64,000 nucleotides of DNA, from contig OY843749.1 of assembly GCA_963693025.1 (NCBI GenBank), forward strand, positions 2,957,617 to 3,021,616, given 5' to 3'. Position 1 is the first letter of the stretch. Each line of letters starts with the position of its first letter. This document shows positions 2,533-36,094 of this stretch, piece after piece. The notes under the pieces were generated by a model, which was not told the origin of the DNA, made no database searches, and worked only from the letters and a program-made list of their open reading frames with translations. This stretch comes from Arenicellales bacterium (GTDB taxonomy: Bacteria; Pseudomonadota; Gammaproteobacteria; Arenicellales; Poriferihabitantaceae). A program made the position numbers and the translations under genes.

Positions 2533-3873
2533 ATGGCAAAACGCAGAAGGGAGCGAAAATCCGGCGAGCGGAAACGCGCCGGGCGGGTAACCAAAGCGCG
2601 TCCGGCGCCCGTGCCTTACCGCCCGTTGGCGGGCGCGCAGGACGCTGAAGCGCGGCGCGCGGCGTTGTTGTGGATTGGCGGGGTGTGGCTGGCATCGCGG
2701 GTGGTGTTGACCGCGGTCGGTCTGTTTGCCAGGGCGACATTGGGTCTGGCGACGGAGGGGTGCGGCATTGATTCCGGGCATGCATGGCTCAATATTTGGG
2801 GCGCGTGGGATTCGGCTTGGTATTACGGCATCGCCGAGGACGGCTATGACAGCGAACCGCGGGCGGACGGCTACGCCAACTACAACTTCTTTCCGTTGTA
2901 TCCGTGGCTGGCGCGGCTCATCGGCTGGCCGCTCGGCGAGGGCGGGAGTTATGTCGGCGGCTTGCTGCTTTCCAACTTCGCGTTGCTGGCCGGCGCGTGG
3001 ATGTTATATCGCTGGCTGGAACTTGAAAAAGACCGTGACACCGCCAAAAAAGCCGTGCTGTTTATGTTCTTGTTCCCGACCGCCTATGTCTTCTCCGCGC
3101 TGATGACCGAGGCGCTGTTCATCGCGCTCAGCATCGGCGCATACTATTTCGCGCGTCGTGGCAACTGGATGCTGGCCGGCGCGCTCGGCGGCTTGAGCGC
3201 GATGACGCGCTCGCTGGGGCTGTTCATCGCGCCGTTGCTGGCGTGGGAATACTTGCGCCAACAATACTGGCGCACCACATCCGCTCCCCCGAGTTTTTCG
3301 CTTCAAGCCGCGCGGCGTTTGCTCATGGCGCTTGACTTCCGCATCCTGTGGCTGGGGCTGGTGCCGGCGGGCTTGGGCGTGTTCATCGTGGTTTGCTGGC
3401 AAGTGACCGGCGACCCGCTGGCGTTCGTCACCATCCAAAAAGATGCGTGGACGCATGGCGGGGAGCAGGGCGTCAACCCGCTGGCGGTGCTGGCGCGCTC
3501 GTTTGATTATTTGTCCACCGTGGCGACGAATGTGGACGAGCGGGTTGCGCTGTTCGGGCTGGACCGCCGCATTATCGGGATAATTTACGGCGCGCTGCTT
3601 TCCATTGCGGTGTTCGCGCTGCTGCTCGCCGGGTGCAAGAAAATCGGCGCGCCGCTCACGCTGTGGTCGATGGCGATGGTGCTGCTGCCGTTGTCGTCGG
3701 CTTACCGCTCGACCTATTCGATGCCGCGCTATCTGGCGGTCATCTTCCCGTTGTTCGTCATCTTCGCGGCGCTGAAGTGGCGCGGTTTTTTATGGGCGGT
3801 CGCCATCGCGCTCGCACTACTGCAGTTGCTCACTTGGTCGCTGTGGACGGTGTGCATTGGCGTCGCTATCTGA
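2533..3873 (+). CDS. GT-C fold membrane glycosyltransferase, PIG-V / Mannosyl_trans2-like
   Basis: The ATG at 2533 (MAKRRRERK...) lies just after the previous stop. Many TM helices are present. The motif WDSAWYYGIAEDGY followed by NFFPLYPW resembles the conserved periplasmic loop I remember for PIG-V-like/DUF2029-like bacterial mannosyltransferases. Confidence 0.55.
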   Translation: MAKRRRERKSGERKRAGRVTKARPAPVPYRPLAGAQDAEARRAALLWIGGVWLASRVVLTAVGLFARATLGLATEGCGIDSGHAWLNIWGAWDSAWYYGIAEDGYDSEPRADGYANYNFFPLYPWLARLIGWPLGEGGSYVGGLLLSNFALLAGAWMLYRWLELEKDRDTAKKAVLFMFLFPTAYVFSALMTEALFIALSIGAYYFARRGNWMLAGALGGLSAMTRSLGLFIAPLLAWEYLRQQYWRTTSAPPSFSLQAARRLLMALDFRILWLGLVPAGLGVFIVVCWQVTGDPLAFVTIQKDAWTHGGEQGVNPLAVLARSFDYLSTVATNVDERVALFGLDRRIIGIIYGALLSIAVFALLLAGCKKIGAPLTLWSMAMVLLPLSSAYRSTYSMPRYLAVIFPLFVIFAALKWRGFLWAVAIALALLQLLTWSLWTVCIGVAI

Positions 3874-3877
3874 GGCA

Positions 3878-5380
3878 ATGAGCCCGCATGACGAACAACG
3901 CGCGGCGGGCGCGGCTGAAGCGGACACCGCGCCGCTGGTCTGCGATGTGGACGGCACGCTGTTGCGCGGCGATTTGCTAATCGAAGGCGTGCTGCGCTTG
4001 CTGGCGGAGGAGCCGCAAATGCTGCTGCGGTTGCCGGGCTGGTTGGCGCGCGGGCGCGCGCACTTGAAGCGCAAGGTGGCGGAGGCGGTGGAGTTGCCGC
4101 CCGACACGCTGGTGTTCGCGCCGCCGGTGCTGGCTGAGCTCAAAGCCGCCGGCGCCGCCGGGCGCGAGGTCTGGCTGGCATCGGCGGCCGATGCGCGCGC
4201 GGTGGCGCCGCTCGCCCGGCGCGTTGCGGCGCGCGGTTATGTGGCGTCGGACGGCGCGGTTAATCTGGCCGGGCGCGCCAAAGCCGAGGCGCTGGTGGCG
4301 CGCTTCGGCGAGCGCGGCTTTGACTACATCGGCGATGCGCGCCGCGACCTCGCGGTGTGGCGGCATGCGCGCCGCGCCATCGGCATCAACTTGCCGCGCC
4401 GCCTGCAACGCCGCGTGCGCGCGCTCGACCGTGAGGCGCGTTTTCTGGCAACCGACGACGGCGGCGTGCGCGCTTATCTGAACGCGCTGCGCCCGTATCA
4501 GTGGCTGAAGAACGCCCTGGTGTTTGCGCCGTTGCTCGCCGACCACAGCGTTGCGCCCGCGCCGTATCTGGCGGCGGCGGTGTTGTTCGTGGCGCTCTCG
4601 GCGTGCGCGTCGGGGGCGTATATTTTCAACGACCTGCGCGACCTCGCGCACGACCGCCGCCACCCGCGCAAACGCCACCGCGCGCTGGCATCCGGCGCGT
4701 TGCGGTTGTTGCCCGCCATCGCCCTCAGCGCGCTGTTGATGAGCGCCGGCGTCGCGCTGGCGTTCGCGCTGTCCGCCACCGCCGGGCGCTGGGCGCTGGG
4801 CTACCTGCTGATTACGCTCGCCTATTCGCTGTGGCTCAAAACCAAACTGTATGCCGATGTGGTGACGCTCGGGCTGCTGTATACATTGCGCGTGCTGGCA
4901 GGTGGCGCGGTGGCGTCGGTCACGCCGTCGCACTGGCTGCTGGCGTTTTCCATCTTCTTGTTCCTCGCGCTGGCAATCACCAAGCGCCAAGCCGAGTTGC
5001 ACCGCATGTTCGAATCCGCCCCATCGCGCGACTCCGGGCGTGGAGCAGGACGTGGCTCCGGGCGCGATTTCGGGCGCGACTATTTCGCCGCCGACCGGCT
5101 CGCGCTGGCGGCGCTCAATGCCGCCAGCGGCATCGCTGCGGTGGTGGTGATGCTGTTGTATTTCCATAGCCCCGAACTGTCCGCGCGCTATGTGCGCTCG
5201 GAGTTGTTGTGGCTGCTCTGCCCGCTCATTCTCTACTGGCTCGGGCGCATCACACTGCTGGCGGGGCGCGGCGCGATGCACGACGACCCGCTGGTCTTCA
5301 CGTTGCGCGACAAAGCCAGTTGGCTATGCGGCGCGGGCGCGCTGGCGGTGCTGGTCGCCGCCAGCGGGGGCGCCGGATGA
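3878..5380 (+). CDS. HAD-phosphatase domain fused to UbiA-family polyprenyl-phosphate phosphoribosyltransferase (DPPR-synthase-like)
   Basis: The N-terminus has the HAD motif I, VCDVDGTLL. The C-terminal half is polytopic and carries the UbiA signature NDLRDLAHDRRHPRKRHRALASG. Start could be ATG 3878, or alternatively TTG 3857. The stop overlaps the next start (ATGA at 5377-5380). Confidence 0.7.
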   Translation: MSPHDEQRAAGAAEADTAPLVCDVDGTLLRGDLLIEGVLRLLAEEPQMLLRLPGWLARGRAHLKRKVAEAVELPPDTLVFAPPVLAELKAAGAAGREVWLASAADARAVAPLARRVAARGYVASDGAVNLAGRAKAEALVARFGERGFDYIGDARRDLAVWRHARRAIGINLPRRLQRRVRALDREARFLATDDGGVRAYLNALRPYQWLKNALVFAPLLADHSVAPAPYLAAAVLFVALSACASGAYIFNDLRDLAHDRRHPRKRHRALASGALRLLPAIALSALLMSAGVALAFALSATAGRWALGYLLITLAYSLWLKTKLYADVVTLGLLYTLRVLAGGAVASVTPSHWLLAFSIFLFLALAITKRQAELHRMFESAPSRDSGRGAGRGSGRDFGRDYFAADRLALAALNAASGIAAVVVMLLYFHSPELSARYVRSELLWLLCPLILYWLGRITLLAGRGAMHDDPLVFTLRDKASWLCGAGALAVLVAASGGAG

Positions 5381-5727
5381 CGGTGGCGCTCATCCTGCTG
5401 TCGGTGGGGCTCAACGCGCTGGCGCAAATCTTCCTGCGCGCCGCCATGCGCGAGGCGGAAATCGTCTGGTCGCTCGGCTTCTTTCTTGGCAAAGCGCTCT
5501 CGCCGGCGATGCTCGGCGGGCTGGCGTGCTACGCCCTCAGCATCTTTTTGTGGCTGGCGGTGCTGGCGCGCGTGCAGGTCTCCGTCGCCTATCCGTTTCA
5601 AGCGCTCGGCTATGTATTCGCCGCCGTGGTCGCGTGGCGCTTTCTGGGCGAAGGCGTGAGCGCGCTCAACTTGCTCGGCTTAGGCTTAATTTGCGCCGGC
5701 GTGGTGGTGCTGGCGCGCGCCGCCTGA
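5377..5727 (+). CDS. small 4-TM EamA/SMR-like protein (ArnE/ArnF-like polyprenyl-P-sugar flippase subunit candidate)
   Basis: The internal ATG at 5377 of ORF 5209..5727 gives 116 aa, MTVALILLSVGLNALAQIFLR..., with four hydrophobic helices. It is translationally coupled on both sides (ATGA at 5377-5380 and TGATG at 5725-5729). Confidence 0.6.
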   Translation: MTVALILLSVGLNALAQIFLRAAMREAEIVWSLGFFLGKALSPAMLGGLACYALSIFLWLAVLARVQVSVAYPFQALGYVFAAVVAWRFLGEGVSALNLLGLGLICAGVVVLARAA

Positions 5728-6716
5728 TGCCCGGCGATTGCGTCATCGTCGGCGGCTGCGGTTTCCTCGGCACTGCGCTGACGCGGCGGCTGGCGGCGCC
5801 GGGGAAGGGCGGCGGCGCGCGCGTGGTGGTCATCGACCGCCAAGCGCCGGCGGCGCCTTGTGCCGGGGTGGACTATCACACCGCCGACATCCGCGACGCC
5901 GCCGCGTTGCTGCGCTTGGCGCGGGCGTGTCCGCCGGGCGCGTGGGTCGTCAATCTGGCGGCGCGCCAGTATCAAGCCGCCATCCCCCGCCGCGGGCGCG
6001 CGCAGTGGTTCGCCGGCGTCAATGTAGACGGCGCGTTGCATGTCGGCCGCCTCGCGGCTGAAATCCGCGCCGCCGGCTGGGTGCAGTTCTCCACCGACAT
6101 GGTCTATGGCTTGCCGCGCGCGGTGCCGGTCGGCGAAGACCACCCGCACAACCCGGTTGGCGAATACGGCGCGTCCAAAGCGCAAATGGAGCGGCGCGTG
6201 CGCGCGTTCGCCAATGCTCACCGCATCCCGCTGACCCTCTTCCGCCCGCGCCTGATTTCGGGACCCGGACGCCTCGGCGTATTCACCCGGCTGTTTGCGC
6301 TCATCCACCGCCACCGCCCGCTGCCCCTCATCGGCAACGGCCGCAACTTCTATCAAATGGTCGCGGTGGAAGATTGCGCGCGCGCGGTGCTGTGCGCCAT
6401 TGAGCGCGGTTGCCCGAACACGGTTTACAACCTCGGCTCGACCCCAACGCTGTGTGTTCGTGACTTGCTCACCGCGTTGCGCGACCGCGTCCAATCCCGC
6501 TCCCCCCTCGTCCCCCTCCCCGCGGCCCCGGTGCGCGCCGCGCTGCGCACGCTCGCGCTGTTCGGCGTTGAGCCGCTCTATCCCGAACAATACCAACTCG
6601 CCGACCGCCACTTCATCGTCACCACCCAAAAAGCCCAGAGCGAACTCAACTGGCAGCCGTCTCGCGATGACCTGGAAATGCTCGTCGACGCCTACCGCTA
6701 CTGGGAGCGCCTGTGA
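5727..6716 (+). CDS. NAD-dependent epimerase/dehydratase (extended SDR)
   Basis: ATG 5727 gives [22 protein letters not shown] (a GxxGxxG Rossmann motif) and a YGASK catalytic motif (EYGASKAQ). The ORF-track entry 5190..6716 is the same frame with a spurious N-terminal extension. Confidence 0.8.
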
Positions 6717-6741
6717 AACCTCGCGGTTGATTTTAGTTGGG

Positions 6742-6770
6742 TTGCCCTGCGCGCGCGACTCGGGTATACT
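6742..6770 (+). promoter_or_regulatory. sigma70-like promoter candidate for rpsF operon (TTGCCC-17 bp-TATACT)
   Basis: -35 at 6742-6747 and -10 at 6765-6770, with 17 bp spacing, about 90 nt upstream of the rpsF ATG. Confidence 0.5.
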
Positions 6771-6861
6771 CCGCCGCACAACTTTCAATCAACTCCTTTC
6801 TTCACCGCCGCCTTCATCAACACGCGCGGGAAGATATAACCCGTGGGGAGAAGCAAAATCC

Positions 6862-7545
6862 ATGAGACATTACGAAATCGTGTTGCTGGTCCATCCCGAC
6901 CAGAGCGAGCAGGCGCCGGCGATGCTGGAGAAGTACAAGGAGATGGTGACCGCCGAAAAGGGGGTGGTTCATCGCGCTGAGGATTGGGGCAGGCGGCGCT
7001 TGGCGTATATGATTAACGAGATTTACAAAGCGCATTACATTATGCTCAATGTGGAGTGCGGCTTGGAGACGCTGCGCGAACTTGAGAAGAATTTCAAGTT
7101 CAACGATTCCATCGTGCGCAGTTTGGTGATTCGGCGCACGCGCGCGATTAGCGAGCAATCCGCGCTCGCCAGGGCGAAAGTGGAAGAGGACAGGATGGAG
7201 GCGGAGAAGGAAGCGGCGCAGCGCAAGGAGGCGGCGAAACGCCAGAGCGCCGAGGCGGCGAAACCGCCGCCTTCGGAGCCGGAAGCCGAACCGAAAGCCG
7301 AACCGAAAGCCGAACCGGAAGCCGCCGAGCCGGTTGAGGCGAAGGACGATAACGCGGATGAAAGCGCCGGCGAAGAGTCCGGCAAAAAAACCGGCGAAGC
7401 CGCCGGCGACGAGGTCGGCGAAGCGGTTGTCGAAGCGCCTGATAAAAAAACCGACGCGAAGGCGGACGACAAACCGGATGAAGTCAAATCCGAATCCGAA
7501 CCCGAACCCGAATCCGAACCCGAAGCACAACCGGAGAAAGTCTGA
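6862..7545 (+). CDS. rpsF: 30S ribosomal protein S6 with long acidic C-terminal extension
   Basis: Starts [17 protein letters not shown]..., a canonical S6 N-terminus. It is 227 aa, roughly 90 aa longer than E. coli S6, because of an E/A/K/P/D-rich tail. The stop overlaps the rpsR start. Confidence 0.93.
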
Positions 7546-7775
7546 TGGCAAGATTTCAACGCCGACCGCGCTTTTGTAAATTCACCGCCGAGGGGATTGA
7601 GTCCATCGACTACAAGGACTTGGACATTCTCAAAGCCAATATCAGCGAAACCGGCAAGATTTTGCCGCGGCGCAGCACCGGCACCAAGGCGCATTTCCAG
7701 AGGCAACTGGCGAGGGCAATCAAGCGCGCGCGCTATCTGGCGATGATTCCTTACACCGACCAACACGACAACTAG
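7545..7775 (+). CDS. rpsR: 30S ribosomal protein S18
   Basis: [30 protein letters not shown]...[20 protein letters not shown] is a canonical S18 sequence. Confidence 0.95.
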
Positions 7776-7797
7776 GCTCAGGCAATCAGAGGACAGG

Positions 7798-8418
7798 ATG
7801 GAAATCATCTTACTGGAGAAAATCCGCAATCTCGGCGACCTCGGCGAAACCGTCAAGGTGGCAAACGGCTACGCCCGCAATTTCTTGATTCCGCGCAAAA
7901 AAGCGATGCGCGCGACCGAGGAAGCCAAAGCCGAGGTGGAAGAGCGCCGGCGCCAACTGGCGATGGAGGAAAGCCAGCGGCAGGAAGTCGCCCAGGCGCG
8001 CGCCGACCTGGCGATTCGGGAAATCACCGTCACCCGTCTGGCGGGCGAAGGCGGTGGTCTGTACGGCTCGGTCTCGCCGGCGGACATCGCCGAAGCGCTG
8101 GCGGAAGCGGGCACGCAGATTGAAAAAGCCGAGATATTTCAGCCCGACGGACCGATAAAACAAATCGGCGAGTTTGAGGCGGAGGTGATTCTGCATCCGG
8201 AAGTTCGGTTCGGTTTGAAAATCACCGTGCAAGAAGGGCAGAGCAATGCGGCGTCGGCGGTTGAGGCGGCGGGGGATGATGCCGGGGCTGAGAGCGAAGC
8301 CGAGCCCGACCTTCCCGATGCCGACGCCAAAGCCGAAACCGCCACCGCCACCGCCACCGACACTCCCGACGCCGACGCCGAGACCGACCTCCCCAAAGCG
8401 CCGCAGGGCGGGGAATAA
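7798..8418 (+). CDS. rplI: 50S ribosomal protein L9 with acidic C-terminal extension
   Basis: MEIILLEKIRNLGDLGETVKVANGYARNFLIPRKKA is a canonical L9 N-terminus. It is 206 aa, about 55 aa longer than E. coli L9, with a D/E/A/T-rich tail. Confidence 0.93.
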   Translation: MEIILLEKIRNLGDLGETVKVANGYARNFLIPRKKAMRATEEAKAEVEERRRQLAMEESQRQEVAQARADLAIREITVTRLAGEGGGLYGSVSPADIAEALAEAGTQIEKAEIFQPDGPIKQIGEFEAEVILHPEVRFGLKITVQEGQSNAASAVEAAGDDAGAESEAEPDLPDADAKAETATATATDTPDADAETDLPKAPQGGE

Positions 8419-8513
8419 TCCGGTTGTTGTGCCTGCCATGCGCGTCAAAAAAAGCGCATCGCGGTTTATGTTCGAGCGCCGCACACGCGTGAATCGGCGG
8501 TGAGTTGAGCGCC

Positions 8514-9884
8514 ATGGCAGAGCCTTCCGCTTCCGCCACCCTTCCGCCGCAGGCGCTGGAAGCGGAGCAATCGTTGCTCGGCGGGTTGTTGCTGGACAAC
8601 CGCAAATGGGATGAAGTCATCAGCGATGTCGGGCTGGGGGCGGACGATTTCTACAACCACAATCACCGCCTAATCTTCGAAGCCATCGGCGCGCTGCAGG
8701 AAGCCAGCGACCCGGCGGACATCGTCACCGTCACCGAATGGCTGACCAAGAAAGACAGCCTGGAAAAGAGCGGCGGAATCGCCTACATCAGCACGCTGGC
8801 GAACAACACCCCTAGCACCGCCAACATCCTCACCTACGCCAGAATCGTGCACGAGCGCGCGATTTTGCGCCAGTTGATTGCCGCCGCCAACGACATAGCC
8901 GACAGCGCCTACAACACCGGCGGGCGCGCCCCGCGCGAGGTGCTGGACCACGCGGAAAAACTGGTCTTCGACATCGCCGAGCGCGACGGGCGCAATCGCG
9001 CGGGTTTTATCTCGTTGCAGAATTTGCTGACCGCATCCATCAATCGAATCGAAGAGTTGTATGAGTCGAAGGAAGCGATTACCGGCGTGCCGACCGGGTT
9101 TGCCGACATTGACGAAAAGACCTCGGGACTGCAGCGCGGCGACTTGGTCATCGTCGCCGGCAGGCCCTCCATGGGCAAGACGTCGTTCGCCATGAACATC
9201 GCCGAATACGCGGCGGTGGACAAGAAACTGCCGGTGGCGGTGTTCAGCATGGAGATGTCCGGCGAGCAATTGTGTATGCGCTTGCTGTCCTCCATGGGGC
9301 GCATCAATTCCGAGAAAATTCGCGCCGGCAGGCTGGCGGAACTGGATTGGTCACGGCTGACTTCAACCGCCGGAATGCTCGGCAAGGCGCCAATCTTTGT
9401 GGACGATTCGGTCGGCTTGACCGCGCTGGAACTGCGCTCAAGGTCGCGGCAGTTATTGCGTAAAAACAGAGAGATAGGGTTGATTATTGTGGATTATCTT
9501 CAACTGATGATGTCCACCGAAGAAAACGAAAACCGCGCCACGCAAATCTCCGGCATCACGCGCTCGCTCAAAATGCTGGCGAAGGAACTCAACGTGCCGG
9601 TGATTGCGTTGTCGCAACTCAATCGTGCGCTCGAACAGCGCCCCAACAAGCGACCGGTGATGTCCGACCTGCGCGAATCCGGCGCCATCGAGCAGGATGC
9701 CGATGTGATTTTCTTCATCTACCGGGATGAAATCTACAACGAAGAATCCGACCAAAAAGGCGTCGCCGAAGTGATTATCGGCAAGCAACGCAATGGCCCC
9801 ATCGGCACCGTCAAACTGGCTTTCCTCGATGAATTCACGCGCTTTGAAAACCTGGCACGAACCGATTTTGAACCACACGCATAG
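8514..9884 (+). CDS. dnaB: replicative DNA helicase DnaB
   Basis: Contains PPQALEAEQSLLGGLL, Walker A GRPSMGKTSFAMN, and IIVDYLQLM...LSQLNR...SDLRESGAIEQDAD. The ATG at 8514 is preferred over the TTG at 8505. Confidence 0.95.
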   Translation: MAEPSASATLPPQALEAEQSLLGGLLLDNRKWDEVISDVGLGADDFYNHNHRLIFEAIGALQEASDPADIVTVTEWLTKKDSLEKSGGIAYISTLANNTPSTANILTYARIVHERAILRQLIAAANDIADSAYNTGGRAPREVLDHAEKLVFDIAERDGRNRAGFISLQNLLTASINRIEELYESKEAITGVPTGFADIDEKTSGLQRGDLVIVAGRPSMGKTSFAMNIAEYAAVDKKLPVAVFSMEMSGEQLCMRLLSSMGRINSEKIRAGRLAELDWSRLTSTAGMLGKAPIFVDDSVGLTALELRSRSRQLLRKNREIGLIIVDYLQLMMSTEENENRATQISGITRSLKMLAKELNVPVIALSQLNRALEQRPNKRPVMSDLRESGAIEQDADVIFFIYRDEIYNEESDQKGVAEVIIGKQRNGPIGTVKLAFLDEFTRFENLARTDFEPHA

Positions 9885-9954
9885 CGCGCCACAGGGATAC
9901 GATTTGCCCGAGACGGATTGGGAAAACTTAAACGGAACAAAGGAGGGATTTGCA

Positions 9955-10455
9955 ATGGACAGTTTGAGCGTGCAGTTGGCGCCGCTAATCGTGGCGGTGA
10001 TGGCGTTGTGTTTTAGTGTGTACAATTTCGCGCAATCGCGCCACAGAAGGCGGCGAAAGTTGCTCAACGCGATTTATCATCACGCCACCAGGGCGATGGA
10101 AAGTCTCAGCGAACAGCAAAAAGCCAACCGGGGAATTCGCAAAACCATTGAGAGCGATGAATCATACACGCCCTATGTGGTGGCGGTTTCGCCCGCCAAT
10201 GAACTCGTCTATGATCAGGTGATCGAGGCGATGGAATGGTTGAATCCGGCGGACGAAAAAACCATGCTGCGCTATTTTCATAGCCAGTCGAACCTTCACG
10301 CGCTGGGGCAGAGTTTCAACTCCGATTTTGTCAGGAGTTGGAACCGGGAGAGGAAACTAGCAATGTGGAGTATTCTGGAAAAGGAACTGGATGGGACGCT
10401 ACAACACGCCCGCGCGGTGAAATCCCTTTTGCACGCCAAAAGGTCTGCGTGGTGA
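9955..10455 (+). CDS. hypothetical membrane-anchored protein (orphan between dnaB and alr)
   Basis: The ATG at 9955 is preceded by AGGAGGG (9941-9947). The protein is 166 aa with one N-terminal TM helix. The gene looks less GC-rich than its neighbours. No family recognised. Confidence 0.5.
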   Translation: MDSLSVQLAPLIVAVMALCFSVYNFAQSRHRRRRKLLNAIYHHATRAMESLSEQQKANRGIRKTIESDESYTPYVVAVSPANELVYDQVIEAMEWLNPADEKTMLRYFHSQSNLHALGQSFNSDFVRSWNRERKLAMWSILEKELDGTLQHARAVKSLLHAKRSAW

Positions 10456-10603
10456 GTGTGTCAGAGGATGGGGGGAATGCCGGGACCGAACCCGAAAATC
10501 GGGGGAATACCGGGTCCAAAACGCGTATTCACAAAACGCATAGTCATCATCTTGTCTCGTAATAAAGTGAAATCAGACCCAACTATGGACGCATCCGGCA
10601 AAA

Positions 10604-11704
10604 ATGTCAAGTATGAACACCGAGCACTGGCGCGCCAGGGCGCTGATTGACGCGCGCGCGTTGCGCCATAATCTCGCGCTGGTTCGCCAACTGGCGCCCG
10701 GCTGCCGCGTGATGGCGGTCATCAAGTCGAACGCATACGGGCACGGCATGGCGGCGGTCAGCCGGGAAATCGCGGGGCGGGTGGATGCGTTTGCGGTGGC
10801 GACGCTGCAGGAAGGCATCGATTGCCGCAACGCCAATCCGGCGACGCCGGTGACGGTGTTGTCCGGCTTGCAGCAGCCGGCGGCGCTGGACTTGTGCCGG
10901 CGGTATCGGTTGGACCCGGTCTTGCATGCCGACGAACACCTGCGCTGGGTCGAGCAATATCGCGGTGCGCCGCTGGCGCCGTGGCTCAAAATCGATACCG
11001 GTATGAACCGGCTGGGCATTGCGCCGGGGCGGGTCGCCGAGGCGGTCGCCCGCTTGCGTCGCAACAAACGGGTCGGGAGCATCCGCCTGATGTCGCACTT
11101 GGCAAACGCCGACGACACCGAAGACGCGCATTCGGCGGCGCAGTTAAAGCGCTTCAAGCAGGCGAGCGATGCGTATGAAATGGAGCGCAGTCTTGCCAAT
11201 TCCGCCGGGGTGATGCGCTGGCAGAAAACGCATTTTGAGTGGGTCAGACCGGGCATTATGCTGTATGGCGGCTCGCCGTTGCGCGGGTATTTGGGTCCCC
11301 AACTGGGCTTGCAACCGGTCATGCAACTGGAGGCGCGATTGCTGGCAATCAAAACCGTGGCGAAGGGTCAGCCGGTCGGCTACGGCGGCGTTTTTGTCGC
11401 GCCCAAATCATTGCGGCTTGGCGTGGTCGGCTTCGGTTACGGGGACGGCTATCCGCGACTCCTCAGGCCGACTGCCGAGGTGTTGATTGACGGCGAGCGC
11501 GCGCCGGTGGTTGGCAGGGTTGCGATGGACATGACCACGGTGGATTTGTCGCGCTGCGCGGATGCCGCCATCGGCGACAAGGTGGTGCTGTGGGGCAACG
11601 GGCTGAGCGTCGATGAAGTGGCGAATTGGGCTGGCACCATTTCCTATGAATTGCTGTGCAAGGTCAGCGAGCGCGTGCCGCGAGCCACCCTGCAGGCGGA
11701 GTAG
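10604..11704 (+). CDS. alr: alanine racemase
   Basis: The PLP-lysine motif region VIKSNAYGHG is present. Length is 366 aa, and the gene sits downstream of dnaB as in many gammaproteobacteria. Confidence 0.9.
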   Translation: MSSMNTEHWRARALIDARALRHNLALVRQLAPGCRVMAVIKSNAYGHGMAAVSREIAGRVDAFAVATLQEGIDCRNANPATPVTVLSGLQQPAALDLCRRYRLDPVLHADEHLRWVEQYRGAPLAPWLKIDTGMNRLGIAPGRVAEAVARLRRNKRVGSIRLMSHLANADDTEDAHSAAQLKRFKQASDAYEMERSLANSAGVMRWQKTHFEWVRPGIMLYGGSPLRGYLGPQLGLQPVMQLEARLLAIKTVAKGQPVGYGGVFVAPKSLRLGVVGFGYGDGYPRLLRPTAEVLIDGERAPVVGRVAMDMTTVDLSRCADAAIGDKVVLWGNGLSVDEVANWAGTISYELLCKVSERVPRATLQAE

Positions 11705-11705
11705 A

Positions 11706-13067
11706 ATGGCGAAACCTAAAAAAACCTATCACTGCGCCGAGTGCGGCGCCGACAGCCCGAAGTGGGCGGGGCAGTGCGGCGAGTGCGGCGCGTGGAATAC
11801 GCTGGTCGAGCGCGCCGCGGCGCCGGACGTTTCGTCGCCCAGCCGCTTCGCCGGCTTCGCGCCGGCTTCCGTGGCGCAGGCGCTCGACCAAATAGACATC
11901 TCCGAAGTCAACCGGTTGTCCAGCGGCAGCGCCGAATTCGACCGCGTGCTCGGCGGCGGCTTGGTGTGCGGCTCCACCGTGCTGATTGGCGGCGACCCCG
12001 GCATCGGCAAATCGACCCTGTTGCTGCAACACCTGTCCATCATCAGCCGCGACTTGCCGGTGCTGTATGTCAGCGGCGAGGAATCCACCGAGCAACTCGC
12101 GTTGCGCGCCAAGCGGTTGGAACTGAGCAGCGGTCGCCTCAAAGTGATGGCAGAGACGCGCTTGGAAACGCTGCTCGAAACCGCGCACAAGGAAGCGCCG
12201 GCGGTGCTGGTGGCGGACTCGATTCAGACCCTGTATAGCGAGGCGGCCACGCAGGCGCCGGGCAGCGTGTCGCAGGTGCGCGAGTGCGCGGCGCGGCTGG
12301 TGCGCTACGCCAAGCAAAGCGGCTGCACCGTGCTGCTGGTCGGCCACGTGACCAAAGAGGGCGCGCTCGCCGGACCGCGCATTCTGGAGCACATGGTGGA
12401 CAGCGTGCTGTATTTTGAGGGCGACAGCGCGAGTTCGTTTCGCCTCATCCGCGCCTTCAAGAACCGCTTCGGCGCGGTCAACGAAATCGGCGTGTTTGCG
12501 ATGACCGAGCAGGGCTTGAAGGACGTCGCCAACCCCTCGGCGATGTTCGTCAGCCGGCAGGGCGCGTCGCGCCCCGGCAGCGTGGTGCTGGCGACGCAGG
12601 AAGGAACCCGCCCGCTGCTGGTCGAGGTGCAGGCGCTGGTCGCCGACAGCGCGCTCGCCAATCCGCGCCGCCTGTGCGTCGGCCTGGAACACAACCGGCT
12701 CGCCATGCTACTGGCGGTGGCGCACCGCCACGCCGGCATTTCCCTCAACAGTTACGATGTCTTCGCCAACGTGGTCGGCGGCGTGCGTGTGACCGAAACC
12801 GGCGCCGACCTGGCGCTGCTCATCGCGATTTTGTCAAGCGTCAAAAACCGCCCCGCCGGCGCCGACTTGGTGGTCTTCGGCGAAGTCGGATTGTCGGGCG
12901 AACTCCGCCCCGTGCAACGCGGACTGGAGCGCATCCGCGAAGCGCAGAAACTCGGCTTCGAACGCGCGCTGATTCCGAGAGCCAATAAACCAAAAGACCC
13001 GCCCAAAGGCATCGAGTTAATCGCGGCGCGCAAGGTTGAAGATGCGCTCGTCATTCTCGAACAGTAG
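11706..13067 (+). CDS. radA: DNA repair protein RadA/Sms
   Basis: From ATG 11706: a zinc ribbon YHCAECGADSPKWAGQCGECGAWNT, Walker A GGDPGIGKST, the KNRFG motif, and a Lon-like C-terminal domain. The last 6 codons and the stop lie in a repeat end-module. Confidence 0.93.
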   Translation: MAKPKKTYHCAECGADSPKWAGQCGECGAWNTLVERAAAPDVSSPSRFAGFAPASVAQALDQIDISEVNRLSSGSAEFDRVLGGGLVCGSTVLIGGDPGIGKSTLLLQHLSIISRDLPVLYVSGEESTEQLALRAKRLELSSGRLKVMAETRLETLLETAHKEAPAVLVADSIQTLYSEAATQAPGSVSQVRECAARLVRYAKQSGCTVLLVGHVTKEGALAGPRILEHMVDSVLYFEGDSASSFRLIRAFKNRFGAVNEIGVFAMTEQGLKDVANPSAMFVSRQGASRPGSVVLATQEGTRPLLVEVQALVADSALANPRRLCVGLEHNRLAMLLAVAHRHAGISLNSYDVFANVVGGVRVTETGADLALLIAILSSVKNRPAGADLVVFGEVGLSGELRPVQRGLERIREAQKLGFERALIPRANKPKDPPKGIELIAARKVEDALVILEQ

Positions 13068-13284
13068 AAAAATACCAACTACCCGTCATTCTCGAGCGTT
13101 AGTGTCCGTTTGCCGCCGCGCTTTTTCTTTTTAAGCGGCGGCTTACGGACACTTGCGTCCTCGGGAATCTCCCTAAGGTTGGCACGGGCTTTGTTGAAAT
13201 TCACGGTAGCCTTAGGGAGATTCCCGAATCGAAGAAAATATGGTCGCCTATCGGCTCCCTATTTTCTACCGTTCGAGAATGACG
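13049..13284. repeat. MITE-like repeat, copy 2 (end-module at 13049-13075 plus core 13084-13284, S-end to T-end)
   Basis: The core is 201 bp with terminal inverted repeats CGTCATTCTCGAGCG / CGTTCGAGAATGACG. It has the GCCGCCGC/GCGGCGGC hairpin and a perfect 16-bp GGGAATCTCCCTAAGG/CCTTAGGGAGATTCCC hairpin. Confidence 0.9.
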
Positions 13285-18164: not shown

Positions 18165-18428
18165 CTAGTCCTCCTCCGCAAAACCGGTCTCCCGGTCGAT
18201 GTTATGCTGCGTCCTGGCGAACCAGAAAATGAGAATCACAAAGATGATCTCAGAACCTTGCGCCGCCATGTAATAACCCAGCGGAAAGCCGATAAAGTTA
18301 AACGCATTGAGCGCGTTTGCAAACCAATGGACTGCAAACGAAAAGATAAACCAAAGCGCCAGGGTGATAAACATCAGCCGTTTTGTTCTCTGCCAATGAA
18401 CGACCCGTTGTTGGGATGTGTCTGTCAT
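18165..18428 (-). CDS. solute:sodium symporter small subunit (DUF4212-like)
   Basis: 87 aa from ATG 18428. Two TM helices, with HWFANALNAFNFIGFPLGYYMAAQGS as I remember for DUF4212. It lies directly upstream of the SSS large subunit. Confidence 0.7.
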   Translation of the reverse strand: MTDTSQQRVVHWQRTKRLMFITLALWFIFSFAVHWFANALNAFNFIGFPLGYYMAAQGSEIIFVILIFWFARTQHNIDRETGFAEED

Positions 18429-18618
18429 GGTCTGTCCTCTTGTTGGGAAAGTAAGGAGAAAGGAAATTAACACGGAGTGCCTGAAGCACGATGGGCGGAT
18501 ACTATCCGATTTGGGGCGTCAGGGCAATACGGCGGAAACGGTTTGTGTTATGTTGTGTCTTGTTTTGTAAATCAAATAGTTATACTGTTTTTATCCGGCG
18601 ATGGTTTTAGATAGGGGG

Positions 18619-19257
18619 CTAACTGGTCATATTTTGCATGAACTCGACAAGTTCATGGGCTTTGGTTGATGGATTGTCGGTGTGATTGTTGGCAGCGGCT
18701 TTCATCGACTTTTTTGCATGAGTTTTTGCGGTTTCCAACTTGTCGCGCACAATGTCGTATATGTTTTCTTTGCCTTTCCGGTATCCGCGGATATGTTTTT
18801 TCAATTCAGATAATACTTGCTTGCTGGTGTAGGGTGAGGTGGTGTATTTGTAGTGCAGTAGCAAAAAGTACTCAAAAGCCGGCACAGACATGATTGCGTG
18901 AAAAACGTGGCGCGGTTTCATGGCCGTGATTTGTGTCAACGCTTGTTGGTAATCCGTATGGCTATTTTTGTCGAACACACAGAAAACTTGGTCGAAAGGG
19001 AAGCCTGCTTTTTTCTCTTTCTCATAGCGTTCCCTGGCAAAGGCGACGACACTCGTGGGGGAGGGATTACTCTCCCCGGTAATTTCCGCGCCGCTGAGTC
19101 TGAGTTCGTTCTTGAGACCACCAAAATAGTTGGGTTCGGTTTTCTTGCCTTCGCAAACGATTAGAATCTTGGGATAAGTCTTCCGCTTGGCTCTTCGGCG
19201 CGAAAGCCCCCGGGCGCCTCTTGCCTTGCGCTTATGGAACAGGTTGTCCGTCCCCAT
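18619..19257 (-). CDS. RloB-like (Toprim-like) protein, AbiLii-like
   Basis: The sequence KILIVCEGKKTEPNYFGGL...QVFCVFDKNSHTDY is the RloB signature as I recall it. The region is AT-rich. It starts 8 nt after the upstream ATPase gene. Confidence 0.75.
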   Translation of the reverse strand: MGTDNLFHKRKARGARGLSRRRAKRKTYPKILIVCEGKKTEPNYFGGLKNELRLSGAEITGESNPSPTSVVAFARERYEKEKKAGFPFDQVFCVFDKNSHTDYQQALTQITAMKPRHVFHAIMSVPAFEYFLLLHYKYTTSPYTSKQVLSELKKHIRGYRKGKENIYDIVRDKLETAKTHAKKSMKAAANNHTDNPSTKAHELVEFMQNMTS

Positions 19258-19265
19258 TTCTGCGC

Positions 19266-20525
19266 TTACGCTTCTTGGATATAGGGCAGGGCGCCATAAG
19301 CGCCGGAGAGATAGCCCAGCTCCAGGTTTTCCCGCCCCTTGCGCGGGCTAAAATCAGTCAACGGATAAACCGCCGTCTCGCCCTGTTTGTTTTTTTCGCA
19401 GAACCAAATTTGGTCGCGGCGCATAATTTTCTGGTTCAGCATGGCGGTCTCGTGCGTGGTGAATACCAGTTGTGCGTTATGCGGGTTTGTTTTGTCGTTG
19501 TGAAACAGTTCCACCAGGAACTTGACCAGTTTCAAGTGAAGGTGTTCGTGCAATTCATCAACAAAAATCACGCGACCTTTCTTCAAGGCGTCAATCCAAT
19601 AACCGGCGAAAGCAAACATTTTCCGGGTGCCCATTGACTCGTCACCAAAATCAAACGTCACCGGTTTCCCATCGGTGTCCGTATAAACCGTGGCAATTTC
19701 ATAAACGGCTTCACCCTGCATTTCCCTGACAAAAAATTGTTGCACGTGCTCCGGCAAGTCTTGGGGCAACTCATCCCGGCTGAGCGCTTTCTTTTTGACA
19801 TATAAGTCGTCAATATCCAAGTCAGCCGCTTTCAGAAAATTCAGCACTTTTTCCTTTCCATACGGGGATGAACCGGGGTTGTAATTCAATGCCGAACTAC
19901 CGGGGGAAGGTGTATTATTCGTGAACCAATCGTAAAGCGGTTGCAATTGTTGGCTGTTTAACTGAACCGCGGTTGACAGAAACAACGCATTATCGCGGGT
20001 GGATTTTTTCCAGAGGCTCTTCTCACCGCTCAGGAACGCACCGAATTCCCATTCATATTCCCGCTTGTCCGATGACCATGTCCGCTCAAACCACCGTTGC
20101 GCGCGATTGCGCGGGTAAGCGATCAACCACTCTTCCCTGACTTGCTCTTGCGTAATCGAAAAACCATATTGATAGCGCACACCGTCAGCGATAAAGTGCA
20201 TTTCAAATTCACTGGGCGCATTCCGTGTCTTGGAATCCAGCATAAACGGCCGCGCCGGAAGCGGGCCGCCTCGAAGTTGCTCCAAACCCGATTTCACCAC
20301 CACCGACCGCATGGTCTTAAACGCCAGCAAGAGATTGGTCTTGCCCGCGGCATTGGCGCCGTAAATCGCCGCCGAACGCAGCAATCTGATATTGTTCTTG
20401 CCCGTGGCAATCGGGGCGTCAAAGGTGTGCGTGTCGGCCATATCCGTGCTTTTGGAAGCGACCAGACTGAAAGTCTGCCGCTCCTTAATGGACATGAAAT
20501 TGCCCACGCTGAATTCAATCAACAT
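19266..20525 (-). CDS. AAA_15/AAA_21-type (ABC-like) ATPase, AbiLi/OLD-ATPase-like
   Basis: N-terminus MLIEFSVGNFMSIKE; Walker A GANAAGKTNLL; Walker B/D-loop VIFVDELHEHLH; then VFTTHE. A hand count of line 19801-19860 gives 23/60 G+C. Confidence 0.8.
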   Translation of the reverse strand: MLIEFSVGNFMSIKERQTFSLVASKSTDMADTHTFDAPIATGKNNIRLLRSAAIYGANAAGKTNLLLAFKTMRSVVVKSGLEQLRGGPLPARPFMLDSKTRNAPSEFEMHFIADGVRYQYGFSITQEQVREEWLIAYPRNRAQRWFERTWSSDKREYEWEFGAFLSGEKSLWKKSTRDNALFLSTAVQLNSQQLQPLYDWFTNNTPSPGSSALNYNPGSSPYGKEKVLNFLKAADLDIDDLYVKKKALSRDELPQDLPEHVQQFFVREMQGEAVYEIATVYTDTDGKPVTFDFGDESMGTRKMFAFAGYWIDALKKGRVIFVDELHEHLHLKLVKFLVELFHNDKTNPHNAQLVFTTHETAMLNQKIMRRDQIWFCEKNKQGETAVYPLTDFSPRKGRENLELGYLSGAYGALPYIQEA

Positions 20526-20621
20526 TGATGTCTCCTCGTGTTTAGCAGCGAATTATGACAAATTTTGCCGAAATAAACCATAAAAAACTGCTTTTGTCCA
20601 TTTTATTTGGCGCGATACGGC

Positions 20622-21314
20622 ATGAATAATATACGAAAAGCAGTAAAAACATCCCTCAGCGCGCTGTTTTCAGTCCATTTTTGGCGGGTGGTGGGTGGGT
20701 ATTTGGGCATCGGCAAGCGCGCCGGTGAGGGGGAGTTGAATCGGGCGGATTTGTTTGGGGAATTTTTGGATAGTCGAGCGAGTCATGTGGCGCAGACGGC
20801 GTTGTATGGGTATATGAAGACGCGGGCGGGGACGGGGTTTCCGGCGTTGTTTGAGGACTCGGCGATGCTGGCGTCCATCAATATCGCCAAGTGGCAGATT
20901 TGGTTGGCGTGTTTGTCGGATTTGGCGGTGTATGGCGGCGTGCTGATGCGCCTTCGCACGGGCGCGCCGGCGGGGGTGATTCGGGGGATGTTGGAGGGCG
21001 TGGTGGCGCGGGTGTTGGAGGCGGGCGGGGCGCGCGCGGCGGATGAAGCGGGCGAGGATTTTGCCGCCGGTGTGCGCCAAGTCAGGGAGCGCATCGCCGC
21101 TTGCGACTTCGATGCGTTGCGCGATGACGAGTCGGCATTCACCGAGAGCCCGCGGGCAGTGGTGTATTGGTCGCCGGTCGCCGATGAACTGAAAAACCGG
21201 GATGTGGACATCGTGCGCAACTCGGTGCGCTTTCGCTGGCAAGAAGTGCGCCGCGACCTGCGCCGGCGGTTGCGGGCGGAGGCGTTGGTTTCGGGTGTGG
21301 ATGCGGACGGGTAA
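20622..21314 (+). CDS. hypothetical protein (core-like GC)
   Basis: 230 aa from ATG 20622 (the ORF track uses TTG 20607). Hand counts of two lines give 37/60 and 46/60 G+C, i.e. backbone-like. No family recognised. Confidence 0.5.
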   Translation: MNNIRKAVKTSLSALFSVHFWRVVGGYLGIGKRAGEGELNRADLFGEFLDSRASHVAQTALYGYMKTRAGTGFPALFEDSAMLASINIAKWQIWLACLSDLAVYGGVLMRLRTGAPAGVIRGMLEGVVARVLEAGGARAADEAGEDFAAGVRQVRERIAACDFDALRDDESAFTESPRAVVYWSPVADELKNRDVDIVRNSVRFRWQEVRRDLRRRLRAEALVSGVDADG

Positions 21315-21491: not shown

Positions 21492-23891
21492 ATGACATTG
21501 CAACGACACGGGTGTTTATTTGTGACAACCGACAATCCGGCGGACGCAAGCCGAGAAATTGAGCTGCTCAATCAACGGCTTTATGCGTTGGAAGTGGAAA
21601 AGTCACGACTGCTTTCCCACAAAGTCCGCTTGGAGTCTGCGGCTTCAAACTCGATGGCCGACTCGTCCACGCTGTCATCAAAAGACAAAGTGGCGCTGTT
21701 CCAAAAATTCTTTGCCGGCAGAAAAGATAGTTACGCTTTTCGGTGGGAAAATAAAACGGGCAGAAGCGGGTATGCGGTCGCTTGTCATAATGAATGGCAG
21801 CCCTGCTTATGCAATAAACCCAAAGTCAAATGCGGCGAATGTGCCAATAAAGCCTATAAAAAATTGGAGCCAAAGGTCATATACGAGCACTTGTCGGGTG
21901 TTCAAACTGTCGGGCTATACCCGCTGATGCGTGATGATACTTGCCGGTTGCTGGCGGTGGATTTTGATAAATCAGATTGGCAACAGGCGGTAAAAGCGTT
22001 TGCGCAAATTTGTGACGGTCAAGACATCCCCTTTGCGATTGAGCGTTCGCGGTCGGGGAATGGTGCGCATGTTTGGATTTTCTTTGAGAGCAAGGCGCCG
22101 GCAAAGGATGCGCGCCGTCTGGGATTTGGGCTGCTGGACCGAACGATGGAAAATTATCCCCACTTGTCGTTTGACTCCTATGACCGTTTATTTCCGAATC
22201 AAGATTCAATGCCAAGCGGTGGTTTTGGAAACTTGATTGCGCTGCCTTTGCAGTATCAACCGCGTCAATACGGCAACTCCGTATTTGTTGACCGCGAATT
22301 GGTTGCTTACGCTGACCAATGGCGGTTTCTTGGCGGACTTAAACGACTTGCCCCCGACAGGCTGCATAAACTCCTGCACCGGTTCGAAGAAGAAACGCCG
22401 GAGCCGTCCGCCAAGCCCTGGGAGCAGGGTATTCCCATTGCCCGCACAAAAATCGAGAATTGCCCCGCCAAACTGAAAATCGTGCTGGCAAATCAAGTTT
22501 TTATCCCCACCGCCACGCTGCCGTCTAACTTGTTGGCTCGCCTGAAGCGTCTTGCCAGTTTTGCCAATCCCGTGTTTTTCAAAACACAAGCGATGCGTTT
22601 CAGCACTCGCGGCATCCCGCGCTATATCAGCCTGGCGCACATTGAACAGGAATACCTTGTTGTTCCCCGCGGATGTCTGGATGATGTTCGGCAATTACTC
22701 ACCGGGCAGAATATCTCGCTTGAGTTCGATGATAAGCGGGAACAGGGAAAGCGCCTGAAAAGCATTCGGTTTTTGGGCGAGTTGCGCGGCGACCAGAAAG
22801 ATGCGGTTGACAAGTTAGTCACGCACGATGCGGGTATTCTTCACGCGCCAACGGCATTTGGAAAAACAGTGACTGCGATTGGGGTGCTCGCCCAACGCAA
22901 AACAAACACGCTGATACTGACGCATACCCGGCAGTTGCTCGACCAGTGGAAGGAGCGCTTAACCGCTTTTCTTGCAGGCGCGGACATTGGTGTTATCGGC
23001 GGGGGCAAACGCACGCCGACCGGCTGTGTTGATATTGCCACCTACCAAAGCCTTTTGAATCGAAAAGACAATAGTATTGCCCCGTTAGTGTTGGACTATG
23101 GTCAAGTCATTATCGACGAATGCCATCATCTGTCGGCACCAAATTATGACCGCTTGCTGTCGGATGTCCGGGCGCGCTATGTTCTCGGGCTAACGGCCAC
23201 ACCCGAACGGCAAGATGGTCATCATCCAATTATCTTTATGCAGGCGGGTCCCATCCGCCACCGGGTTAAAATCGACAAGCAGACCCATTTTGAACAGCAA
23301 GTCATCATAAGGCTCGTTGCGGACAAGCCGCCGGAACCGCTGGCTTCGGAAGAAAGGCCGCATATTGCGGATGTTTACCGATGGCTGATGGAATCAAGCA
23401 AGCGGGACGAGTTAATCGTGCAAGACATCGCGGCACAAATCGAGATGGGCGGCAACCCGCTGGTGTTGACGGAGCGCAGAGAACATGCCGGTTTGTTGAG
23501 TCAAGCGCTGTCTGAGCGGGGGTATGAAACCATTGTTTTGCGAGGCGCCATGCGCGCCAAAGAGCGCACACAAGCCATGGAGAAAGTCCAAACCGCGCAA
23601 GCGTTGATTGCCACGGGAAAGTATATTGGCGAAGGCTTCGACCTCCCCAGGCTGGATACGTTATTCCTGGCGCTGCCTATTTCATGGAAGGGCTCGCTTG
23701 TGCACTATGCGGGGCGTATTCACCGCGTCGCCGAGCGCAAAAAGAAAGTGACTATTTACGACTATGTGGACAGCGCGCTACCCATGTTGCAGCGCATGTT
23801 TCAACGCCGCCGCAAAGGCTATGAGGCGATGGGGTATCGTCTGGTTAGCGGTGATGATGCGCCGGTGATTCAATCCCGGCTGGAGGTTTGA
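21492..23891 (+). CDS. archaeo-eukaryotic primase (AEP/PrimPol)-like domain fused to SF2 DEAH-box helicase
   Basis: N-terminal coiled coil, then a Cys-rich cluster CHNEWQPCLCNKPKVKCGEC. AEP motifs LLAVDFDK (DxD) and SGNGAHVWIFF (sGxGxH). Helicase Walker A APTAFGKT, IIDECHH, LGLTATP and YAGRIHR. Line 22201-22260 has 27/60 G+C. Confidence 0.75.
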   Translation: MTLQRHGCLFVTTDNPADASREIELLNQRLYALEVEKSRLLSHKVRLESAASNSMADSSTLSSKDKVALFQKFFAGRKDSYAFRWENKTGRSGYAVACHNEWQPCLCNKPKVKCGECANKAYKKLEPKVIYEHLSGVQTVGLYPLMRDDTCRLLAVDFDKSDWQQAVKAFAQICDGQDIPFAIERSRSGNGAHVWIFFESKAPAKDARRLGFGLLDRTMENYPHLSFDSYDRLFPNQDSMPSGGFGNLIALPLQYQPRQYGNSVFVDRELVAYADQWRFLGGLKRLAPDRLHKLLHRFEEETPEPSAKPWEQGIPIARTKIENCPAKLKIVLANQVFIPTATLPSNLLARLKRLASFANPVFFKTQAMRFSTRGIPRYISLAHIEQEYLVVPRGCLDDVRQLLTGQNISLEFDDKREQGKRLKSIRFLGELRGDQKDAVDKLVTHDAGILHAPTAFGKTVTAIGVLAQRKTNTLILTHTRQLLDQWKERLTAFLAGADIGVIGGGKRTPTGCVDIATYQSLLNRKDNSIAPLVLDYGQVIIDECHHLSAPNYDRLLSDVRARYVLGLTATPERQDGHHPIIFMQAGPIRHRVKIDKQTHFEQQVIIRLVADKPPEPLASEERPHIADVYRWLMESSKRDELIVQDIAAQIEMGGNPLVLTERREHAGLLSQALSERGYETIVLRGAMRAKERTQAMEKVQTAQALIATGKYIGEGFDLPRLDTLFLALPISWKGSLVHYAGRIHRVAERKKKVTIYDYVDSALPMLQRMFQRRRKGYEAMGYRLVSGDDAPVIQSRLEV

Positions 23892-36003: not shown

Positions 36004-36094
36004 GGAGAGATGTCTGAGTGGTTGAAAGAGCACGCCTGGAAAGTGTGTATACGTTAATAGCGTATCGAGGGTTCGAATCCCTCTCTCTCCGCCA
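36004..36094 (+). tRNA. tRNA-Ser(GGA)
   Basis: GGAGAGATGTCTGAGTGGTTGAAAGAGCACGCCTGGAAAGTGTGTATACGTTAATAGCGTATCGAGGGTTCGAATCCCTCTCTCTCCGCCA. Acceptor stem GGAGAGA/TCTCTCC, anticodon loop CT-GGA-AA, long variable arm, T-loop GGTTCGAATCC, and an encoded CCA. It is near-identical in layout to E. coli tRNA-Ser(GGA). Confidence 0.95.

Follow-up and report, generated by a model that had tools for sequence, protein, structure and literature searches.

Two adjacent genes of comparatively low G+C content in the genome of an Arenicellales bacterium raise the question of whether an ATPase and a RloB-family protein, encoded side by side, form an anti-phage defence system and, if so, of which kind. They lie within 18474–20606 of the stretch analysed here, referred to hereafter as the window, which comprises 64,000 nucleotides of contig OY843749.1 (assembly GCA_963693025.1; G000, C1:2957617-3021616) from a single-contig genome of 3.15 Mb. 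Both are on the minus strand, the ATPase gene running from 20525 to 19266 and the RloB gene from 19257 to 18619. A preliminary description of this DNA had seen in them an AbiL-like abortive infection module. We conclude that the locus is quite probably a horizontally acquired, self-contained two-gene anti-phage module of the AbiL (RloA/RloB) type, with a mechanism analogous to those of PARIS and P2 Old. A defence role is supported by the intactness of both proteins, their strict pairing, their horizontal mobility and the defence contexts in which they occur.

The two open reading frames (ORFs) were confirmed, encoding 419 and 212 amino acids and separated by 8 nt, as were the motifs quoted for the ATPase (GANAAGKTNLL at residues 56–66, VIFVDELHEHLH at 319–330 and FTTHE at 355–359) and the peptide quoted for RloB, ILIVCEGKKTEPNYF, which comprises its residues 31–45. 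Among PADLOC models the ATPase matched AbiLi best (PDLC02335; E-value 2.4e-100, 333.8 bits, residues 1–418), followed by AriA (PDLC02980; 6.6e-39), with PtuA marginal (2.9e-5). Pfam assigned it to AAA_21 (9.6e-40, residues 52–363). The smaller protein matched PADLOC AbiLii (PDLC02337; 9.6e-26) and Pfam RloB (1.8e-39, residues 31–206, well above the 31.5-bit cut-off), which places 18619..19257 in the RloB family and bears out the proposed AbiL-like identity; NCBIfam had no model for either protein. At the level of sequence, the locus has everything that defines AbiL, namely a match to AbiLi, a match to AbiLii, and adjacent, co-directional genes in the order ATPase then RloB. It is an ordinary intact copy of a known and very common module. 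Homologues numbered 1115 for RloB and more than 7328 for the ATPase; cluster representatives exceed 1000 for RloB and 7000 for the ATPase, so that AbiL/RloAB is very widespread.

AbiL was described in Lactococcus lactis and is represented by PADLOC and DefenseFinder models; the equivalent RloA/RloB pairs were first named in type I restriction–modification (R-M) loci of Campylobacter. It blocks lactococcal phages and belongs to the group of systems that combine an ABC ATPase with a Toprim domain (PMC13064643, PMC11464382), and the phenotype first described for AbiL takes effect at a stage later than phage transcription (table in PMC13064643). The domain composition that the preliminary description had given for lactococcal AbiLi/AbiLii is correct (PMC13064643), and the literature does group AbiL with PARIS, OLD and Gabija as ABC ATPase plus Toprim systems, in keeping with the split logic proposed for the pair (PMC11464382, PMC13064643, PMC12409363). 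Gene order is the same in AbiL as in the window, with an ABC ATPase of ~410–420 amino acids followed by an RloB of ~190–215, and the conserved residues are shared. Comparison was made with ORF55 and ORF56 of the Lactococcus prophage proPhi7. These two genes lie at the end of the prophage after the lysin gene, are both annotated ‘abortive phage resistance protein’, and encode proteins that match the same PADLOC AbiLi/AbiLii models. The window ATPase aligned with ORF55 over its full length (BLASTP E 8e-46, 29% identity), and the window RloB profile matched ORF56 with an hhalign probability of 97.7%. The window copy differs from its lactococcal counterparts in being chromosomal, in a high-GC gammaproteobacterial genome of the metagenome-assembled type, whereas theirs are on plasmids or prophages. 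Its proteins are only ~25–29% identical to the lactococcal ones, and the basic tail of RloB is longer in its clade.

The ATPase–RloB pair is a strictly conserved unit. In 80 RloB loci taken from species-representative genomes, mostly of Gammaproteobacteria but also of Nitrospirota, Desulfobacterota and Alphaproteobacteria, an ATPase gene stood directly upstream on the same strand in 78, at a distance of -86 to +36 nt and mostly of -4 to +12 nt. The nearest other neighbours of the pair were heterogeneous, with R-M families as the sole recurrent theme and a minority of the 127 neighbours (ResIII, 9; SWI2_SNF2, 6; N6_N4_Mtase, 5; HSDR_N, 4; Methylase_S, 2). The pair also travels on mobile elements. 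Annotated as an ATP-binding protein and a RloB family protein, it was found on mobilizable, ColE1-like plasmids of 3.7–5.3 kb in Klebsiella and E. coli. In the P2-like Klebsiella phage ST13-OXA48phi12.1 (Peduoviridae; L154, 2144-4130), which encodes an RloB 44% identical to that of the window, it sits in an accessory locus flanked by the replication-endonuclease/DinI region on one side and the portal gene on the other, a type of position in which old and further defence genes are carried by P2-like phages.

These carriers bear on whether the pair is primarily a type II toxin–antitoxin (addiction) module, with RloB as the toxin and the ATPase as the antitoxin, and with phage defence secondary or absent. 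On the small ColE1-like plasmids, where addiction modules are expected, much of the cargo consists of the pair. Moreover, ATPase-type (AAA) antitoxins neutralize Toprim-type toxins: the NetFlax study validated AAA-ATPase antitoxins against Toprim_OLD-type toxins, and its RloB node is linked to the same ATPase node (PMC10440598). The lactococcal prototype, however, was isolated through its phage-resistance phenotype (PMC13064643), and the pair occupies accessory-gene positions in phages and prophages and lies beside R-M systems in defence islands. A toxin–antitoxin mechanism is, besides, compatible with abortive infection, and PARIS is both (PMC13064643). We consider a primarily addictive role distinctly unlikely.

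The block was confirmed to be an insertion into the intergenic region that separates the DUF4212-SSS operon from a divergently oriented gene for a 235-amino-acid protein (orf235, 20607-21314, plus strand), because the corresponding sites in genomes of the same genus are empty; its placement between the SSS transporter operon and a core-GC gene had been correctly recognized. The DUF4212-SSS operon and the 235-amino-acid gene of G004 and G011 are divergent neighbours, 135–200 bp apart, and the M24 peptidase gene comes next. The orf235 product is 58–64% identical at the amino acid level to its counterparts, which stand beside DUF4212/SSS in seven same-genus genomes. It has core GC, had no Pfam, NCBIfam or meaningful PADLOC match, and is a conserved hypothetical gene separating two insertion junctions. 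Alignment with four empty sites failed to fix the exact insertion boundaries, the intergenic DNA being too diverged (mean column identity 52%).

A gene combining an AEP-type primase with a helicase lies between orf235 and the M24 gene (21492-23891, plus strand). The window genome therefore has two independent insertions in this neighbourhood, the ATPase–RloB pair and the AEP-primase/helicase gene, since in the empty-site genomes DUF4212-SSS, orf235 and M24 directly adjoin one another. The 799-amino-acid product of the second insertion joins an AEP-TOTE primase-polymerase domain (Pfam 5.9e-95) and a ResIII/Helicase_C SF2 helicase in one protein, and its gene has a GC3 (G+C at third codon positions) of 0.58. 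It is missing from the orf235/M24 junction in G004, G011 and the metagenomic relative L143; the M24 protein is DoeA-like.

Relatives of the pair were found at the same site. G008 (L035, C1:574000-590500) carries a pair 64–65% identical to that of the window in the same position and orientation, within an island of ~10 kb (2909-13278) that comprises genes for a RadC-like JAB protein, a UvrD helicase-PD-(D/E)xK nuclease, and type III Mod and Res, then AbiLi and AbiLii. L143, whose RloB is 69% identical, has the pair alone at this site. The most similar pair outside near-identical genomes (RloB 76% identical), that of L142, is at another site, beside type I HsdS and HsdM genes. The DUF4212-SSS/orf235 junction is thus a defence hotspot, since diverged pairs occupy it in G008 (with type III R-M) and in L143, and the cassette moves between sites. 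For the window genome this adds one annotated AbiL-type system and the recognition that, in gammaproteobacteria of this sponge-associated type, defence genes have repeatedly entered the DUF4212/SSS-orf235-M24 neighbourhood. In L142 the pair (5722-7639) stands between two Aconitase_C (LeuD-like) genes, encoding 209 and 212 amino acids, downstream of HsdS/HsdM, and its insertion may have duplicated or split a leuD-like gene.

The same relatives separate the pair from two larger assemblies. The ATPase–RloB pair and the AEP-primase/helicase lie ~1 kb apart and are both lower in GC than the core genes, as might be expected of one multi-component system spanning orf235. Between them, however, stands orf235, a core gene at the empty site in the seven same-genus genomes, implying two insertions with two junctions; in G008 and L143 this site has the pair but no AEP-helicase, and no AEP-TOTE family was among the 25 commonest upstream or downstream families of the 78 paired loci. 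A single system is thus extremely improbable, and it was rejected on account of the separate junctions and the occurrence of the pair without the helicase. Alternatively, the pair could be an R-M accessory (the ‘R-linked ORF’ of Campylobacter rloA/rloB) that needs R-M genes, so that the solitary copy in the window would be a functionless orphan. R-M families are indeed the most frequent recognizable neighbours, and in G008 the pair immediately follows type III Mod and Res, all four genes being on one strand, while in L142 it lies beside type I HsdS and HsdM. Such families are nevertheless only a minority of the nearest neighbours; L143, the small plasmids and both phages carry the pair without an adjoining R-M gene, and the two ORFs of the window are intact with all invariant residues kept. 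This dependence is highly improbable.

The low G+C content noted for the block is relative only. The count given for 19801-19860 is exact, at 23/60, and the ATPase and RloB genes (51.0% GC, GC3 0.62; and 48.2% GC, GC3 0.58) stand apart in GC3 from the flanking core genes SSS (62.5%, 0.84), orf235 (62.3%, 0.74) and M24 (64.5%, 0.81). What did not hold was the term AT-rich taken absolutely, because the block is ~50% GC against a background of ~58–65%, and the adjacent core gene, DUF4212, is equally low at 47.9%. In agreement with the preliminary description, no mobility gene accompanies the pair: no integrase, transposase or tRNA gene was found near it, the sole tRNA gene of the window being at 36004. 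A repeat search showed no flanking direct or inverted repeats and no target-site duplication.

The larger protein belongs to the AAA_21 family; it is a Rad50/SMC-like ABC ATPase, and its nucleotide-binding and hydrolysis motifs are intact. Conservation was assessed in an alignment with 32 homologues of 55–77% identity. The Walker A motif follows the pattern GxNAxGK(T/S) at residues 56–63, position 63 being T or S among the homologues, and Q119, in the Q-loop region, is invariant or nearly so. The ATPase looks catalytically competent, because Walker A, Q119, signature, Walker B, D-loop and H-loop are all present and invariant or near-invariant (see the table). Sequence and profile searches of the PDB with the ATPase gave nothing meaningful; its structural model matched Rad50 heads and PtuA hexamers in Foldseek, with E from 1e-9 to 1e-7. 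The hexamer matches suggest that the modelled protein could form an oligomeric scaffold. The gene also contains an imperfect direct repeat of 35 nt (77%), at 20331-20365 and 20388-20422. A degenerate copy of the Walker A coding stretch IYGANAAGKTNL, reading DAPIATGKNNI, lies 19 codons further upstream, in a segment that is variable and gapped in homologues. The repeat is probably a small lineage-specific duplication or due to chance.

RloB is encoded by a single gene in the window genome. Its conservation was assessed in 38 homologues, with Lactococcus, Klebsiella-phage and enterobacterial-plasmid members added as a more distant test. The AlphaFold2 (AF2) model (pLDDT 86.6) has a disordered basic tail (residues 1–26), a core of four beta-alpha units with strands at 31–35, 57–60, 90–96 and 119–125, and a helical C-terminal half. 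In this model strands 1, 3 and 4 have E36, D96 and E129, respectively, at their C-terminal ends. With one glutamate where strand 1 ends, an aspartate where strand 3 ends and a second glutamate following strand 4, the layout would fit a Toprim metal-dependent nuclease. Invariant in RloB even across the distant members were E36, G37, T40, E41, D96, S124, E129, H135 and K161; C93 (in C93-x-F-D96), H100, D194-N-P-x-T198 and H201 were likewise invariant in the alignment. In the tail, M1 and R20 are invariant, and at least 90% of the clade share G2, R10 and L18. The length of this Lys/Arg-rich segment, MGTDNLFHKRKA...RRRAKRK, differs between groups: members from plasmids and Lactococcus have a shorter, though likewise basic, version of the long tail seen in the gammaproteobacterial and Klebsiella-phage clade. 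Nucleic-acid binding or docking on the ATPase could be its role.

The pair resembles several known systems in part. It shares with PARIS a split ATPase and Toprim-like effector and a match of the ATPase to the AriA model, and published trees put AbiL beside PARIS (PMC11464382). The effector of the window, however, belongs to the RloB family and not to DUF4435/AriB, and AbiLii and AriB have no significant sequence similarity and superpose poorly in structure (PMC13064643). PARIS identity was rejected, the 212-amino-acid protein having no AriB or DUF4435 match in PADLOC or Pfam. The same two modules occur in P2 Old, class 1 OLD and Gabija GajA, where ABC ATPase and Toprim are fused, whereas they are separate proteins here; the position of the Klebsiella phage pair between replication genes and portal gene is a further likeness to P2 Old. 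A fused OLD or Gabija protein was rejected on the separateness of the modules, and Pfam OLD-like_TOPRIM had no match anywhere in the window genome. With Septu and retrons the likeness lies in the ATPase, since the best defence-system structures for its model were the PtuA hexamers 8sux, 8ee4 and 8eea together with the retron Ec78 and Eco7 complexes. The Septu effector PtuB, in contrast, is an HNH nuclease and not an RloB, and the PADLOC match to PtuA was marginal.

PARIS and P2 Old provide a possible scheme for the action of the AbiL-type pair. In PARIS, AriB is sequestered by a hexamer of AriA until Ocr triggers its release, and tRNA-Lys is cleaved (PMC11464382, PMC12409363); P2 Old is a tRNase (PMC12445682). 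The neutralization of Toprim-type toxins by AAA antitoxins (PMC10440598) and the stage at which the AbiL phenotype takes effect (PMC13064643) are further grounds for the scheme. By analogy, an oligomer of the ATPase would bind RloB in the uninfected cell and hold it inactive, as AriA and P2 Old would suggest. A trigger derived from the phage would alter the state of the ATPase, so that RloB would be released or activated. As a metal-dependent nuclease, RloB would then cut an essential nucleic acid, with tRNA as the foremost candidate in view of the tRNase activity of AriB, Old and the Toprim domain of retron-Eco2. Translation would stop as a result, and the infection would be aborted.

Several points weigh against this reading. 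The roles of the ATPase as sensor and restrainer and of RloB as a released nuclease, together with trigger, target and stoichiometry, are inferred from analogy. No AbiL mechanism or solved structure was found in the literature and PDB searched, and according to a review it is still to be determined whether AbiL/RloAB work like PARIS (PMC13064643). The AF2 model of the ATPase is of modest quality (pLDDT 65). For RloB, neither phmmer nor a profile of 38 sequences matched any PDB chain, and a Foldseek search of the PDB returned only generic three-layer alpha/beta folds, with no E below 1e-3 and with Toprim, OLD and AriB chains all absent from the top 50. Comparison of RloB with an OLD-type Toprim profile, built from 19 loci found with PF20469, gave hhalign probabilities of only 14–31% (P 1e-4 to 2e-3), weak even with 121 RloB sequences and a difference from the OLD proteins. 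At the Toprim position, finally, the window RloB carries DxN and not DxD, a residue (98) that varies across the family.

The claim that RloB is Toprim-like thus stands in part. The register of the hhalign alignments was constant on both motifs, with RloB EGxxTE on OLD EGxtE and FDKx on tDxD, while the low probability and the lack of a Toprim structure in Foldseek fell short of it; a relationship between RloB and Toprim is probable and was weakly reproduced here. Among viral models (BFVD), the sole strong match to the RloB model was an RloB-like protein (TM 0.73), and a few DNA topoisomerases matched weakly (E 0.016–0.06). Alternatively, RloB effectors may differ from conventional OLD-type Toprim nucleases, and the target or chemistry of AbiL could differ from the cleavage of tRNA in the anticodon loop or arm by PARIS and Old. 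We think this unlikely, but raise it because RloB matched no solved structure, has the additional invariant residues C35, C93, H100, H135, K161, H201 and DNP-T (194–198), and has a conserved basic tail. If it were true, the gammaproteobacterial clade, being well conserved, would offer a suitable starting point for work on an uncharacterized effector mechanism.

The asparagine at residue 98 also raises the question of whether the module is an inactive relic in which RloB catalysis was lost by a change from DxD to DxN. Aspartate is found at this position in 95 of the 115 nearest relatives with the motif found, as compared with D96-K-N98 in the window, but asparagine recurs in the other 20, and D, E or N occurs in distant, functional-looking members. 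On this evidence residue 98 is not a fixed catalytic position in the RloB family. Decay of the AbiL module does occur elsewhere: in G002 (L004, C3, 2774-2863) and G019 (L008, C2, 2676-2804) an intact ATPase gene is followed by only the last 30–40 RloB codons, the effector having been deleted or having decayed, and tblastn found no RloB behind the ATPase of G024 (L007). Truncated genes of this kind lend the relic some plausibility; in the window, however, both ORFs are full length and every truly invariant residue is present, and we regard loss of activity as very unlikely. An intact AbiL-type module remains the preferred reading. Any tractable member of AbiL could settle whether all split ATPase–Toprim systems work like PARIS, and the window copy has no feature favouring it over the enterobacterial plasmid or phage copies.

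Table. Positions, in window coordinates, of the ATPase–RloB genes, their conserved motifs and the adjoining intergenic segments.
Feature	Coordinates	Strand	Basis or remarks
AbiLi / RloA-like ABC-type (AAA_21) ATPase, 419 aa	19266..20525	-	Pfam AAA_21, PADLOC AbiLi
Walker A / P-loop, G56-A-N-A-A-G-K-T63	20337..20360	-	G56, N58, A59, G61, K62 invariant
ABC signature-like, E296-S-M-G-T300 (ESxGT)	19626..19640	-	E296, S297, G299, T300 invariant
Walker B, V319-I-F-V-D-E324, then D-loop LHEHLH	19554..19571	-	D323, L329, H330 invariant; E324 at least 90%; codons checked
H-loop, F355-T-T-H-E359	19449..19463	-	F355, T356, H358 invariant
AbiLii / RloB-family protein, 212 aa; proposed Toprim-like nuclease effector	18619..19257	-	Pfam RloB, PADLOC AbiLii
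RloB basic N-terminal tail, residues 1–28, 11 K/R	19174..19257	-	pLDDT <50 for residues 1–26
C35-E-G-K-K-T-E41, end of beta1 (Toprim glutamate position)	19135..19155	-	C35, E36, G37, K39, T40, E41 invariant in 38 homologues
D96-K-N98, end of beta3 (Toprim DxD position; here DxN)	18964..18972	-	D96 invariant
S124-V-P-A-F-E129 after beta4, second conserved acidic residue	18871..18888	-	S124, P126, F128, E129 invariant
8-nt spacer, ATPase stop (TAA) to RloB ATG; operon-like tight junction	19258..19265	-	sequence
81-nt AT-rich leader (33% GC) 5' of ATPase	20526..20606	-	sequence, GC content
145-nt remnant, RloB stop to DUF4212 start; left insertion edge	18474..18618	-	sequence; DUF4212-side part aligns with intergenic DNA of relatives' empty sites

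The layout of the locus bears on its expression. A scan for promoters and terminators gave no more than expected from shuffled sequence and listed none for the ATPase–RloB operon, and no minus-strand terminator-like site was found in the sequence 3' of RloB (18165-18618). Transcriptional read-through from the pair into the DUF4212-SSS transporter operon is possible, because of this lack of a terminator-like site and because that operon follows RloB in the same orientation after 145 nt. The consensus promoter scan listed no promoter in the leader. A GAGGAG at 20532-20537 stands 6 nt ahead of the ATPase ATG, and an extended -10-like box, TGTCATAAT (20552-20560, minus strand), may be a promoter element of the pair.

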